Below, one piece after another: positions 10,811-17,318 of a stretch of DNA of 64,000 bases. Positions within the stretch are counted from its first letter, which is position 1; the number at the start of each line of letters is the position of its first letter. Source of the stretch: Escherichia phage Eryne; sequence record PQ529420. One strand, given 5' to 3'. The notes under the pieces are model-generated. The model saw only the letters and a list, made by a program, of their open reading frames with translations, was not told where the DNA came from and did no database searches. The position numbers were made by a program, and so were the translations under genes.

Positions 10811-11179
10811 ATGCAAGAGAATAGTAAAGTGTGTAGCATGAAAAGCAGCCCTTATTTGCTACAATTTTATGAGTGGTGGTTAGAACAAGAAGATACAAAC
10901 TTTAGTAAAAAGCATTATGGTCTTTGCACGTGTCTTGTAGACTTCTTATACAATATTGCTTTGATAAAAGATGTTGAGAATGTAGCAAAGCTCCAATCCT
11001 CTGTACGAGAGGAAATGAAGGAACAATTTAAGAAAGCGGGTTTGAACCATTTACATCCGTTTAATACGGATTTCTCGCACTACTTTACGGAAACAGAACT
11101 AGGCATTGCACACCTTAATAAAGAACGTGTACAATGGGTGATTGATCGTATTCGTGATATGGAGGAATACAATGGTTAA
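10811..11179 (+). CDS. Cys-rich paralog family member C (hypothetical)
   Basis: track ORF; RBS AAGGAGAAG; shares FYxWW, GLCTCL, PFN, RVQWVIDRI motifs. Confidence 0.55.
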   Translation: MQENSKVCSMKSSPYLLQFYEWWLEQEDTNFSKKHYGLCTCLVDFLYNIALIKDVENVAKLQSSVREEMKEQFKKAGLNHLHPFNTDFSHYFTETELGIAHLNKERVQWVIDRIRDMEEYNG

Positions 11180-11381
11180 GTTTAAAACTTTCTGTGCAAT
11201 CACTGTTTGTCTTATTCTTGCATACGTGTTATTCTCTAGTATCATTCGTTTAGGTGAGTATATGGCAAGAGAAGCTCGTGAAAGTGAAGCTAAAAAAGAA
11301 CAGTGCATCGTGTTAAAGCACCAAAGGGATGCTGAAAAATTTCTTGAACAGGATTGTGGGCGCTATGTGAATTATAATTAG
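11172..11381 (+). CDS. membrane-anchored small protein, paralog of 16170..16394
   Basis: ATG with GGAGGAA RBS; N-terminal TM helix; C-terminal KEQCIVLKHQRDAEKFLEQDC resembles KEKCIILKHKKQAEDFLKNKC in the paralog. Confidence 0.5.
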   Translation: MVKFKTFCAITVCLILAYVLFSSIIRLGEYMAREARESEAKKEQCIVLKHQRDAEKFLEQDCGRYVNYN

Positions 11382-11390
11382 GAGGGAAGT

Positions 11391-11639
11391 ATGTTAGATA
11401 TTTTTACCTTTGATCGTGTTGGTACACCGATTACCGAAGAAGAACGTACCAAAATTGAACAAGAATTGGATGCTTTACGTGCGTCTCTTACAGACACAGC
11501 CTCACTACAACGTGAAGCTGCACATCTCACAGAGATCACTGGTATTCAGTGGAGCACGGAGTGGGTTGTAATTACAATTGAAGCGGATATTTGGGGACAT
11601 GAAGAGACGCTACGTACCGGAGTAGTAACGGTTTGGTGA
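11391..11639 (+). CDS. hypothetical protein (82 aa)
   Basis: track ORF; RBS TAGGAGGG. Confidence 0.55.
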   Translation: MLDIFTFDRVGTPITEEERTKIEQELDALRASLTDTASLQREAAHLTEITGIQWSTEWVVITIEADIWGHEETLRTGVVTVW

Positions 11640-11685
11640 TAGATGTTATTCTTTTGTGTTTCTTGATATATAAATAGGAGGGTTT

Positions 11686-11910
11686 ATGGTAAAACGTCTG
11701 GAATGGGATGCGTGTACTGCTCACGCTTGTCACTGTGATATTGTTGAAGATCCTAATGGAGAGATGGTGTATTATGAGGATTACGAAGCATTGCACAATG
11801 CTGTGATTGCTTTACTGGATGATATTAGCTCACGCTATCCAGGACAACAATTCACGTGTCCACATATCCAACTATTAGCCGAACTTACGGAGTATCCAAG
11901 TGTTCCATAA
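11686..11910 (+). CDS. hypothetical protein with CDIVEDPNGE motif, paralog of 17055..17318
   Basis: track ORF; RBS TAGGAGGG; shares C-D-I-V-x-D-P-x-G motif. Confidence 0.5.
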   Translation: MVKRLEWDACTAHACHCDIVEDPNGEMVYYEDYEALHNAVIALLDDISSRYPGQQFTCPHIQLLAELTEYPSVP

Positions 11911-12088
11911 TATGGGTGTCCCTGAACAACTGCTCTTTATTGTAGGATTAGTAGGCTTATTGGCGGCTGGCGCTAAAGCCGCTTCTCACACGCATCACAT
12001 AATGTTAAGATTTCTATTCCTACTCCCTTCTATCCTCGTACTATTAGTCATACTGATCGATAACATTTTGCACAATTAAGGAGAGGTT

Positions 12089-12673
12089 ATGAGTAAAATT
12101 ATACCAAGCAGTTATGAATTATTACAGTTTTATGTGTATTATATAGACTGGGTTAGTAGATTGAATGTTAAAGACAATGCGATGTTTAGTAAAAACATCT
12201 GTTTAACAGAAAGTATCTTCCGTTACTGGCACACAGGTAGAAAGTGTACACACAGTGAAGCTATGCGCATTGTAGGAGAATATCTGGAGCAATTGCAAAA
12301 AGCAGAGCTACCTGTCCTTCACCCATTCAATGAATCTAAAGAAGAATTAGAACAAGAGTGTAGAGAAGGTAAGTGCCATTTGAATGAAAAACGTATCGAA
12401 TGGGTGAGGCAACGTTTAGCCGATGCAGGAAAGACTCCTAGTGACTCTGACTATACGTGGTATGATGTAGAGGGTTTAGTTCAAGGTTTTGAGGCTTGTG
12501 CTATAGATAATACCAACTTTGCCAAAGTTTTATGCGAGGCTTATGACCTGGCAGATAAAATCCGAAATCATGGATGGAAACAAGAGCATAAAGAATCATA
12601 TGAACGCCTTGACAAGATTTTCAAACAGATCTATTCTAACCACAAGAAGATGTTCCAAATGGAGGATGTGTAA
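12089..12673 (+). CDS. Cys-rich paralog family member D, extended C-terminus (hypothetical)
   Basis: track ORF; RBS AAGGAGAGG; shares LLQFY, PFN, CH-L-N..RIEWVRQRL motifs. Confidence 0.55.
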   Translation: MSKIIPSSYELLQFYVYYIDWVSRLNVKDNAMFSKNICLTESIFRYWHTGRKCTHSEAMRIVGEYLEQLQKAELPVLHPFNESKEELEQECREGKCHLNEKRIEWVRQRLADAGKTPSDSDYTWYDVEGLVQGFEACAIDNTNFAKVLCEAYDLADKIRNHGWKQEHKESYERLDKIFKQIYSNHKKMFQMEDV

Positions 12674-15698: not shown

Positions 15699-15946
15699 AT
15701 ATCAAAGATGTTGTAGCATACGTAGAAGATGAAGTTAAAAACCATACAAGTTTACTGAAAGTAATGGTTGTGGTTAAAGATGGTATTGGACAAGTAAACG
15801 TACAACATGTCTTATCTGACACTGTATATAATGTGTTTGAATGTAAAGAAACACCTCATGGAGTACGTGTTGTTTATATTGATAACAATTTCAAAGAATG
15901 TGTGAGACATACCTTAGAAAATGAACTAAGGATCACAATCTTATGA
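15695..15946 (+). CDS. hypothetical protein (83 aa)
   Basis: track ORF; RBS CAGGAGAAA. Confidence 0.55.
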   Translation: MNIKDVVAYVEDEVKNHTSLLKVMVVVKDGIGQVNVQHVLSDTVYNVFECKETPHGVRVVYIDNNFKECVRHTLENELRITIL

Positions 15947-16116
15947 GTTATTATGTTGTACCTTATGCCAATAAGTGGAGAGTAAGAGAAACTTGTTTTC
16001 TATTCTCCTGGTGGGCTACGTTCGGAGATGGTTGTGGAAATGATACAGGAAAGCCTGTAGAGTACGACACAAAAGAAGAATGTGAACAGTGGATAAAATT
16101 AACACAAAGATGTTGA
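15943..16116 (+). CDS. hypothetical small protein (57 aa)
   Basis: ATGA overlap with previous stop; not in track. Confidence 0.35.
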   Translation: MSYYVVPYANKWRVRETCFLFSWWATFGDGCGNDTGKPVEYDTKEECEQWIKLTQRC

Positions 16117-16169
16117 CACGATCTTAACTTCTTGTTAGTATCAATGTGTACTAACGATAAGGAGGGTTT

Positions 16170-16394
16170 ATGAAGTCTGTAAACAAGTTGCAACAATTTT
16201 TGTTATCAACAGCAATCTCTTTGCTTTTGTTAATTGGTATTCTGTATGGTGCATCTAACTTATACAATCTACATAATGATGTAGAACAGAATAAAGAGAA
16301 GTGCATCATTCTAAAACACAAGAAACAAGCAGAAGATTTCTTAAAGAATAAGTGTTACAACTACATTGATTATGAGGAGACAAACAATGATTAA
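16170..16394 (+). CDS. membrane-anchored small protein, paralog of 11172..11381
   Basis: track ORF; RBS AAGGAGGG; N-terminal TM helix and conserved C-terminal motif. Confidence 0.55.
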   Translation: MKSVNKLQQFLLSTAISLLLLIGILYGASNLYNLHNDVEQNKEKCIILKHKKQAEDFLKNKCYNYIDYEETNND

Positions 16395-16629
16395 AGAATT
16401 AGGTATGCGAGTATACAGTGAGTGGACTCCAAGCAATGGCCCAGGAGTTGTTGCAGCTAAATGTATCAATGGTCGTATTGAGTACCTGGAAGGGTATGAA
16501 GATAATGAAGAGTTAGTAGATTATGCTAAATCTTTTATTGAAGATGATACAGACTTTATTGTATTATATGATACAGGAGAGTTAGAGTATGGATATGATG
16601 GAGATGGGGATATCTTTGAACTTCAATAA
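16387..16629 (+). CDS. hypothetical acidic protein (80 aa)
   Basis: internal ATG of track ORF 16366..16629 behind GAGGAG RBS. Confidence 0.5.
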   Translation: MIKELGMRVYSEWTPSNGPGVVAAKCINGRIEYLEGYEDNEELVDYAKSFIEDDTDFIVLYDTGELEYGYDGDGDIFELQ

Positions 16630-16836
16630 GAGTAGTAAGTAAGGTATAAAGAGTATATAGTTAGTTATAGAGTTAGTAACATTACATATACTCTTTCCAT
16701 GTATAACATGGAATATTCTCTACCTCGCTATCGCTCGGTATATAAGATTAGGGTAGCATGTTTTTTACGAAAAGTAAAACTGTTTATACCGATTGATAGC
16801 AGGTTTTTAATAGATTCTATCTATGAGGAGTAGAAA

Positions 16837-17055
16837 GTGTACAAATTATATAAAGGAAAAGATAAGTTTACGGGTAATACATCTGGTTTCTATGTAACAC
16901 CACGTGGTGTTGCTGTATTTGATTGGATTCCTGGTACTCCAGATCGTGAAATGATTTCTCTTGTAAAACTGTCGGAACAAGAGTACACTTACGGTGACAT
17001 TACAACATTCTATTCTCGTGCAGAAAATCCAAAACTGATTGCGGAGTGGGAATAA
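16837..17055 (+). CDS. hypothetical protein (72 aa), GTG start
   Basis: track ORF; GAGGAG RBS 6 nt upstream of GTG. Confidence 0.5.
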   Translation: MYKLYKGKDKFTGNTSGFYVTPRGVAVFDWIPGTPDREMISLVKLSEQEYTYGDITTFYSRAENPKLIAEWE

Positions 17056-17318
17056 TGGTTACACGATATGATTTAGAGGTGTACAGCCAAGGTGCTGCTG
17101 GTCAATGTGATATTGTACCAGATCCAGAAGGAGACTATGTTCTTCTTGCTGATTACAACAAGCTAGAAGAAAGACTTCTGGCTGTGTATGCTAAAGAGAA
17201 CAAAACAATCTGTCCTTATTGCAATGGAATGGGTTGGGTAGTTGCAGATGTTGGACAGATGTATGAATGTGTGCCTTGTAAAACCACAGGATTTATTGAA
17301 AAGGATACTGACAAATGA
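17055..17318 (+). CDS. hypothetical zinc-ribbon-like protein, paralog of 11686..11910
   Basis: internal ATG of track ORF 17046..17318; CDIVPDPEGD motif and CPYCNG...CVPC pairs. Confidence 0.5.
   Translation: MVTRYDLEVYSQGAAGQCDIVPDPEGDYVLLADYNKLEERLLAVYAKENKTICPYCNGMGWVVADVGQMYECVPCKTTGFIEKDTDK

Follow-up and report, generated by a model that had tools for sequence, protein, structure and literature searches.

Two pairs of related small genes in a phi92-like coliphage: probable old duplication in one and probable shuffling of an N-terminal module in the other

How did several small genes of recognizably similar sequence come to lie near one another on one strand of a virulent coliphage genome, and does their similarity mean that they were duplicated there? 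We consider this question for a 64,000-nucleotide stretch of Escherichia phage Eryne (record PQ529420), which we refer to throughout as the window. An earlier note, made from the sequence alone, had singled out two pairs of small plus-strand genes: A1 (11172..11381, 69 amino acids) with A2 (16170..16394, 74 amino acids), and B1 (11686..11910, 74 amino acids) with B2 (17055..17318, 87 amino acids). It had read the pairs as products of repeated duplication and divergence. All four open reading frames (ORFs) are found at these positions, and the motifs quoted for each pair are present as written. The paralogy is real in both pairs, and duplication followed by divergence fits pair A reasonably well, as an old event; for pair B the same description is misleading, since the two proteins share only an N-terminal head of about 40 amino acids.

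The genomic setting is well defined. Nucleotide identity of 95-99% to window bases 10800-18000 is found in 55 phage records (in 52 over at least 80% of the query), all of them phi92-like myoviruses of the genus Justusliebigvirus (Stephanstirmvirinae), with phage Antha at 98.7% identity. The counterpart block in phi92 consists of genes 001-035, which lie immediately past the left terminal repeat, on one strand, and are nearly all annotated 'hypothetical'; A1, B1, A2 and B2 are the equivalents of phi92 gp007, gp008, gp022 and gp025, respectively. The phi92 record carries a SignalP 3.0 signal peptide on gp022 (the only one of the two A genes so annotated) and a 'predicted DnaJ-like zinc finger' on gp025. 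We identify this part of the window as the block of small genes on the early side of the genome in a phi92-like virulent myovirus, a 146-kb Justusliebigvirus phage.

All four ORFs look like translated genes under purifying selection. Shine-Dalgarno sites (GGAGG, AGGAGG, AGGAGG and GGAG) sit 6-9 nt upstream of their four ATG codons, and the genes are kept in at least 55 genomes. Across six Justusliebigvirus genomes, the ratio of non-synonymous to synonymous polymorphism (pN/pS) is 0.40 for A1, 0.37 for A2, 0.05 for B1 and 0.06 for B2, so that B1 and B2 are very tightly constrained; A1 and A2 undergo non-synonymous change about 7 times faster, yet retain both of their cysteines in the same six genomes. 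Each of the four genes belongs over its full length to a PHROG family of 'unknown function', and the partners of each pair are held in separate PHROGs with no record there of their relationship.

Sequence comparison identifies A1 and A2 as true homologues. BLASTP aligns them at 50% identity over 30 amino acids, with E=1e-10 in a pairwise comparison and 6.7e-8 in an all-versus-all search of the 455 six-frame window ORFs of at least 35 amino acids. Their Smith-Waterman score of 93 compares with 23.0 +/- 4.3 for shuffled sequences and was reached by none of 5000 shuffles; scores for cross pairs of A with B genes are at background. Profiles built without the partner tell the same story: a hidden Markov model (HMM) of A1-like sequences only matches A2 at 1.6e-13, one of A2-like sequences only matches A1 at 7e-9, and hhalign aligns the two at 97.4% probability. 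The two genes likewise cross-match each other's PHROG reciprocally, A1 belonging to phrog_15662 (9.5e-33) and A2 to phrog_23204 (2.2e-49) with a cross-match to phrog_15662 at 2.2e-8.

What the A proteins share is a 28-residue C-terminal domain, KEQCIVLKHQRDAEKFLEQDCGRYVNYN in A1 (11295..11378, plus strand) and KEKCIILKHKKQAEDFLKNKCYNYIDYE in A2 (16293..16376, plus strand), with the consensus KE.CI.LK...AE.FL...C..Y..Y. The motifs KEQCIVLKH..AEKFL..DC in A1 and KEKCIILKH..AEDFL..KC in A2 place cysteines at the same positions in both proteins, Cys45 and Cys62. In the family as a whole the domain takes the form KE.CIVLK(H/Y)QK(D/E)AEKFLD..C.RYVRYK; in an alignment of 25 sequences L58 is invariant, and E43, C45, I46, L48, K49, A54, F57, C62 and Y68 are each present in at least 90%. 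The hydrophobic N-terminus and the linker vary freely across the family, while the domain, with its two nearly invariant cysteines 17 residues apart, is kept. The N-terminal transmembrane helix that the earlier note had described, together with the common cysteine motif, is borne out by hydropathy as well as by the reciprocal HMMs: the best 19-residue hydrophobic segment spans residues 7-25 in A1 (mean Kyte-Doolittle value 2.55) and residues 10-28 in A2 (2.22), and a hydrophobic segment close to the N-terminus was present in all 36 family members examined. A1 thus consists of a hydrophobic helix at about residues 7-25, a charged linker and the C-terminal domain, A2 has the same architecture, and both are predicted to be single-pass membrane-anchored proteins of about 70 amino acids.

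The distribution of the A family bears on its origin. A profile search of 5.8 billion proteins returned 64 relatives, all of 47-83 amino acids and none with a Pfam domain; they lie mostly on contigs of about 140-155 kb (the genome size of Stephanstirmvirinae) or on short fragments. Searching phage genomes with tblastn placed A1-like genes in Justusliebigvirus, Phapecoctavirus and Klebsiella Stephanstirmvirinae, and A2 in 55 records, all of Justusliebigvirus type. Within the 28-residue domain, identity between A1 and its counterparts from other genera averages 71%, whereas A2 is 51% identical to those counterparts and 50% identical to A1; by this measure A2 is the most divergent A member and branches outside all A1-like sequences, as would follow either from an old duplication with loss elsewhere or from fast divergence of A2 after duplication. 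The start of A1 overlaps the stop of the preceding gene by 8 nt (ATGGTTAA). That gene (10811..11179, plus strand) belongs, by all-versus-all comparison, PHROG assignment and synteny, to a four-member family that the all-versus-all search recovered at 7955..8371, 8512..8886, 10811..11179 and 12089..12673. In Phapecoctavirus Mt1B1_P17 an A-like gene likewise directly follows a four-member-family gene, with a 10-nt overlap (locus L004, 2390..2399), and this agreement in gene order and overlap identifies A1 as the ancestral copy. The overlap suggests that the two genes are translationally coupled and that the two families are perhaps linked in function; a homology search with 10811..11179 returned its own cluster only and gave no functional clue. 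Since the A family was found only on contigs of Stephanstirmvirinae-like size, an old duplication within the lineage is its simplest origin, and we infer that pair A arose by such a duplication within the subfamily, for which duplication and divergence is a plausible description.

The split between the paralogs is old in both pairs. At the DNA level pair A is similar only within the conserved core (57 nt at 70%), as is pair B (38 nt at 79%), and of the three codon positions the third has the fewest identities (12 of 30 in A and 16 of 43 in B), so conservation acts at the protein level.

Two further observations concern the surroundings of the A genes. An indel or replacement polymorphism at 11345..11675 covers the 3' end of A1 together with an 82-amino-acid ORF at 11391..11639, which is present here and in EmilieFrey and PD114 and absent from phi92, PHB05 and pEC-M2929; in these six genomes its presence is perfectly linked to alternative A1 C-termini, ...EQDCGRYVNYN versus ...ALDCNRYVSYQMYE. 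Some records label this ORF an 'M20/M25/M40 family metallo-hydrolase', a label that looks spurious for 82 amino acids. In addition, a near-consensus sigma-70-like site (16113..16141, TTGACA-17-TAGTAT with an upstream TG) occupies the 53-nt gap immediately 5' of A2.

Pair B presents a different picture. B1 and B2 are 36% identical over 44 amino acids by BLASTP (E=7e-7 pairwise, 2.8e-4 among the 455 window ORFs), and their Smith-Waterman score of 69 compares with 24.6 +/- 4.6 for shuffles and was reached by none of 5000, so that both pairs stand far above the shuffled controls against which the earlier note had wanted them set. Profile comparison agrees here too. B1 belongs to phrog_23083 (7e-56) and B2 to phrog_22955 (7e-62), with cross-matches in both directions (B2 to phrog_23083 at 2.8e-4), and an HMM of Kagunavirus-type heads only, containing no B1- or B2-type sequence, matches B2 (3.1e-8) and B1 (1.4e-6), whereas the best of the remaining window ORFs reaches 0.49. 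Sequence comparison thus recovers both pairs, by BLASTP and by profiles free of the partner, and for B it confines the homology to the N-terminal head of about 40 amino acids, MV.RY...G..V.YEDY..LE, the tails being unrelated. The head occupies residues 1-38 of B1 (MVKRLEWDACTAHACHCDIVEDPNGEMVYYEDYEALHN; 11686..11799, plus strand; 2.1e-16 with the head HMM) and residues 1-41 of B2 (MVTRYDLEVYSQGAAGQCDIVPDPEGDYVLLADYNKLEERL; 17055..17177, plus strand; 3.5e-10), and it includes the motif on which the earlier note had relied, CDIVEDPNG-EMVYYEDYEAL in B1 and CDIVPDPEG-DYVLLADYNKLEE in B2. An AlphaFold 2 model of B1 (mean predicted local distance difference test score 85.6) has two strands (residues 4-7 and 19-21), a short strand or bridge (27-28) and two helices (30-50 and 59-67); it portrays the head as a small beta-sheet leading into a helix that starts at YEDY..LE.

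The tails have histories of their own. In B1 the head is followed by a two-helix tail, AVIALL..RYPG..F.CP..LA, which is found again in Kagunavirus gp021 and within a 148-amino-acid Phapecoctavirus protein (72% identity). In B2 it is followed by a short helix and a zinc-knuckle segment, CPYCNGMG-x12-CVPCKTTG (residues 53-79; 17211..17291, plus strand), whose CPYC and CVPC are the added CxxC pairs that had been pointed out before. The B2 gene is tightly packed: its ATG overlaps the preceding stop codon (TAATG), and its last 4 nt (17315..17318) are also the first of the next gene. Full-length copies of B2 occur only in Justusliebigvirus, and its tail recurs as 75-amino-acid Phapecoctavirus proteins, where it is mis-annotated as 'DNA ligase'. 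The tail also has a paralog within the window, a stand-alone gene for a 48-amino-acid DnaJ-type zinc knuckle (CPVCGGTG...CWNCNGLG; 36524..36670, minus strand), recognized by profiles and, at E=7.9e-4, in the all-versus-all search; this gene has its own ribosome-binding site and sits among nucleotide-metabolism genes.

The B2 tail matches phrog_13972 at 3.1e-9. Its profile matches to curated families are weak (Pfam DnaJ_CXXCXGXG at E=0.015 and NCBIfam RtpA at 0.0023, both below cut-offs), and in bits B2 reaches 15.9 against a cut-off of 32.7 for the DnaJ-type family (PF00684) and, for anti-TRAP (PF15777, NF058604), 15.2 against 32 and 18 against 65 for RtpA. As in the knuckles of DnaJ and anti-TRAP (RtpA), the two B2 motifs could together form one putative zinc centre. 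B2 differs from DnaJ in lacking a J domain and in having one such putative centre rather than two; of its motifs the first is exact and the second reads CxxCxxxG. Sequence searches of PDB chains with B2, with the B alignment and with the A alignment returned nothing meaningful.

The heads of B1 and B2 turn out to belong to a large family. When 1.84 billion cluster representatives were searched with HMMER, 821 head proteins of 43-265 amino acids were recovered at E<=1e-3, so that the head caps at least 821 protein clusters at 50% identity. It almost always occupies residues 1-39, and the best-matching stretch starts at residue 1-7 in most of the matches listed; a few proteins hold two copies, including an internal second copy, and the head is therefore an autonomous module. 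Its carriers include enterobacterial prophage proteins, Kagunavirus-like phages and 68-kb phages, with many different tails. A word-indexed search described one large group as MVQRY followed by 8-25 hypervariable residues and by (E/D)G.(F/W/Y)V.YEDYAKLE; these MVQRY-type heads carry about a dozen insert types, are joined to about 10 classes of tail in shuffled combinations, and reside in proteins of 58-84 amino acids on contigs of about 40-45 kb, Kagunavirus phages among them. The long members are enterobacterial prophage proteins, for example MSVKRYEWVACDEHSCHCDVVESAEGDMVDYEDYAALEARCAALAAENAGLK...TPATDAFLAEVRAQGVE...AAQLRKGVQS, and for one prophage member (P0179) the NCBI name is 'eae-like domain protein'. 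The head is not covered by Pfam or NCBIfam, with Ead_Ea22 matching 1 of 68 long head-bearing proteins. Literature searches returned no papers for the head motifs MVQRY and YEDYAKLE and nothing specific for phi92 early genes.

Kagunavirus (Guernseyvirinae) provides a parallel to the arrangement seen here. In phage vB_EcoS_HSE2, gp021 is a full-length homologue of B1 at 49% identity, with both the head and the AVIALL..RYPG..CP tail, and gp020 joins the same head to a different tail, so that the tandem gp020 and gp021 look like a 'paralog pair' themselves. Phages of the HSE2 type differ in being 41-kb siphoviruses with the head genes upstream of the lysis cassette, and their head inserts (NDHGDMFQAT or ASYNDYYEND), unlike that of B1, lack a Cys/His motif. 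That motif, C-x2-H-x-C-x-C (C10, H13, C15 and C17; 11713..11736), marks the head subtype to which B1 belongs: it is common to B1, the 68-kb phage protein Bas101_0087 and prophage heads (CDEHSCHCD), is absent from B2 and Kagunavirus heads, and may be a small metal site specific to the one subtype.

Other arrangements were seen among the prophage proteins. Within the set P0167, P0168, P0169, P0203 and P0297, some chains contain two head modules, each followed by a coiled-coil segment. Other head-bearing prophage proteins end in WPW..EWWKP..RRDL..AEIERIDR, which may be a segment of the DUF550 or dATP-dGTP diphosphohydrolase type.

If B1 and B2 were recent duplicates, each should find its nearest relative in the other, and this is not what we observe. 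The B1 head is 62-78% identical to enterobacterial prophage heads such as MSVKRYEWVACDEHACHCDVVESAEGDMVDYEDYAALE, and the B2 head is 68% identical to P0282, a 52-amino-acid protein of a metagenomic phage contig that also bears a NinX-like gene; B1 and B2 are 36% identical to each other, and B1 is outside the 20 best matches of B2. Because each head has nearer relatives elsewhere and the tails are unrelated, the two are best regarded as subtypes of a large shuffled module family and not as products of a local whole-gene duplication. We infer from these comparisons that pair B arose by module shuffling, which fits better than a recent duplication within the genome.

The principal alternative is that both pairs arose by whole-gene or segmental duplication in this lineage, for example of an A-B cassette, and subsequently diverged. 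A does precede B in both copies, with A1 and B1 adjacent in phi92, and both B proteins have the CDIV.DP.G flavour of insert. A2 and full-length B2 are restricted to Justusliebigvirus, while A1-like and B1-like genes occur in the same order in Phapecoctavirus as well, and the persistence of DNA similarity in the cores of both pairs could also be taken as a trace of such an event. A duplicated cassette does not, however, account for B tails that are unrelated or for heads that resemble outside sequences so much more than each other; nothing between A1 and B1 corresponds to the genes that separate A2 from B2, no similarity was found between the flanks, and the gene directly after A2, gp023, does not belong to the head-module proteins (hhalign probability about 0). 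We consider this explanation rather unlikely, if the strongest of the competitors to an old duplication for A and module shuffling for B.

One version of the cassette idea was examined and rejected, namely that gp023 (16387..16629) is itself a decayed head protein. It has no match to the head HMM and an hhalign probability near 0, and the apparent link, a metagenomic 73-amino-acid in-frame chimera (P0067) in which B1 residues 1-32 are fused to the C-terminus of gp023, is explained by deletion. The 1550-bp contig L013 (SRR3713844) joins B1 at about codon 34 to the middle of gp023, a 4.7-kb deletion corresponding to window 11789..16494, with a 16-nt imperfect microhomology at the junction (TATGAGGATTACGAAG / TATGAAGATAATGAAG). 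As this rests on a single contig from one sample, it may be an artefact; if genuine, it shows that a loss of A2 can take about 14 neighbouring genes with it.

The conserved B head might instead be a nucleic-acid element, either a recombination linker or a 5' translational element, and no protein domain at all. Such an element would be expected at the very 5' start of the member genes, and that is where the head lies in nearly all of them; in the Kagunavirus-like members MVQRY and YEDYAKLE flank hypervariable inserts and precede alternative tails as crossover points would, and the natural deletion fuses B1 to gp023 within the YED-coding stretch. The pattern of substitution runs the other way, since between B1 and B2 codon positions 1 and 2 are the most often identical (25 and 27 of 43) and position 3 the least (16 of 43), and pN/pS is about 0.05. 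Internal second copies of the head in some proteins and the confident AlphaFold 2 fold, a small beta-sheet with a helix, also favour a protein. Moreover, the observations that suggest crossover points are compatible with a domain, as a conserved protein module also supplies recombination homology. We regard a purely nucleic-acid role as very improbable.

With the head taken as a protein module, the nearest known counterparts are the P22 EaE or 'eae-like domain' proteins, which are encoded in the early-left accessory region of enterobacterial lambdoid prophages and, like B1 and B2, are accessory and mosaic. The heads of P0174, P0179 and P0192 are 62-69% identical to B1 residues 1-36, sharing C-x2-H-x-C-x-C and G.MV.YEDY.AL with it, and head-bearing prophage proteins share the coiled coil, TPATDAFLAE and QLRKG modules with P22 EaE. 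The hallmarks of the EaE-like proteins, namely the coiled coil (AALAAENAGLK), the TPATDAFLAEVRAQ module and the QLRKG C-terminus, are absent from B1 and B2, whose carrier is a 146-kb virulent myovirus and not a lambdoid prophage. EaE itself gave a weak BLASTP match to B2 (E=0.12), and Pfam Ead_Ea22 (PF13935) matched neither B1 nor B2 at E<=1.

One EaE-related protein has a reported target. Oad2 (HK446 gp27) directly binds the OLD defence nuclease and inhibits its tetrameric form, and the recombination-adjacent, highly modular region has been argued to be a reservoir of anti-defence genes (bioRxiv 10.64898/2026.07.10.737580). Oad2 comes from the same mosaic EaE-like pool as the head bearers, an example of how members of that pool can inhibit a defence nuclease directly, and contains the coiled-coil, TPATDAFLAE and QLRKG modules. 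Its N-terminus is different, with no match to the head HMMs, B1 or B2 by BLASTP or profile; as Oad2 is without the head module, we rejected B1 and B2 as anti-OLD proteins of the Oad2 type. We similarly rejected B1 as a Lar-like restriction alleviation protein, for which there was a marginal phrog_3592 match (E=7.7e-4, residues 2-48); B1 has no CxxC pairs and did not match Pfam Lar_restr_allev at E<=1.

By analogy, B1 and B2 may be early proteins, small and cytoplasmic, with host or defence proteins as their binding partners; the head that they share would then be a common scaffold for folding or oligomerisation, and the target would be set by the tail. We offer this tentatively and think it somewhat more likely to be wrong than right. 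A1 and A2 could act at the inner membrane early in infection through the conserved Cys-pair domain, with superinfection exclusion or a block of some envelope or membrane-bound host function as candidate roles; this suggestion, drawn from their sequences, is possible and slightly more doubtful than that for the B proteins. A broader proposal, also by analogy, is that the head is a widespread uncurated adaptor domain marking combinatorial phage effectors of anti-defence or host takeover, with the head supplying a common scaffold or oligomerisation unit and the hypervariable insert hairpin and exchangeable tails setting specificity. This is speculative and we judge it unlikely. Were it true, B1 and B2 would be differently targeted inhibitors in a virulent phage, engaged in an arms race like that of Oad2, and alongside them A1 and A2 would form a second pair of inhibitors, acting at the membrane, with non-synonymous evolution about 7 times faster.

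Several points weigh against the account as a whole. Expression of the block as 'early' is read from its position and strand only, and a promoter scan found no enrichment of sigma-70-like sites (58 against 56.7 expected). The roles given here to A1, A2, B1, B2 and the head module are predictions, and the anti-defence link of the B heads is guilt by association, Oad2 itself being without the head. The similarity of the P22 EaE head to the module is marginal (E of about 0.01-0.07 in a tiny search set). For the A proteins the topology signal is mixed: in most family members lysine and arginine are more frequent on the C-side flank of the hydrophobic segment (mean 2.6) than on the N-side (mean 1.1), pointing to a cytoplasmic domain, whereas A2 has the opposite, signal-peptide-like pattern, pointing to a periplasmic one. 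The AlphaFold 2 model of A1, a long helix over residues 2-50, is of low confidence (mean predicted local distance difference test score 73.7, predicted template modelling score 0.37), too low to judge whether Cys45 and Cys62 would pair. Taking homology, origins and proposed roles together, we nevertheless find the account given here the probable one.

Lysis proteins of the holin, antiholin or spanin type would be another reading of A1 and A2, which are small proteins with one hydrophobic helix at the N-terminus, a charged C-terminal part and, in the case of phi92 A2, a SignalP 3.0 signal peptide. Yet the genes lie in the same-strand small-gene block by the phi92 terminal repeat (gp001-gp035) and not beside an endolysin, the proteins have no lipobox and no holin or spanin family match in PHROG, Pfam or NCBIfam, and A1 is apparently coupled in translation to a soluble family member and not to a lysis gene; we hold this even less likely than the nucleic-acid element. 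That the similarities are chance resemblances between short biased ORFs, or that the ORFs are not genes, as proteins of 69-87 amino acids, alignments of 30-44 residues and an AT-rich region rich in small ORFs might suggest, is refuted by the shuffles, the survival of both pairs in the all-versus-all search, the retrieval of the partner and nothing else in the window by independent family profiles, the ribosome-binding sites, purifying selection and retention in at least 55 genomes.

Observations elsewhere in the block and among the matching records are given here for completeness. A further cryptic paralog pair is formed by 15160..15399 and 16387..16629 (both plus strand), the equivalents of phi92 gp018 and gp023. 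They have no direct match to each other, and two tandem proteins of Klebsiella phage phi1_175008 match both at E of 3e-10 to 2e-5; their common motifs are LG..I.D...G....L.GYEDN and Y.WT.DP.VTE. Two strong bidirectional terminator-like hairpins, at 20321..20340 and 20690..20719, close the plus-strand small-gene block, and GC skew changes sign there. Finally, four to five 146-kb records carry a Campylobacter jejuni phage label; the genes of MG065639, MG065645, MG065656 and MG065689 ('Campylobacter phage' A150, A145, C3 and A110a) have 88-100% protein identity to those of E. coli Justusliebigvirus, and the host label looks doubtful.

The two pairs are well-supported but ordinary cases of mosaicism among phage accessory genes and constitute no new system; alone, the finding would not surprise a phage genomicist. 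Of most use beyond the pairs themselves is the delimitation of a large family of N-terminal modules, not covered by Pfam or NCBIfam, that could be curated and screened. Its natural chimeras, in which one head occurs with many tails and one tail with many heads, make up a defined set for dissecting the roles of head and tail. For phi92 and Justusliebigvirus phages considered as therapy candidates, the four genes are conserved accessory genes. More generally, part of the apparent duplication in the early regions of large virulent coliphages is domain-level mosaicism, drawing on a pool of modules common to these phages, temperate lambdoid prophages and small siphoviruses.

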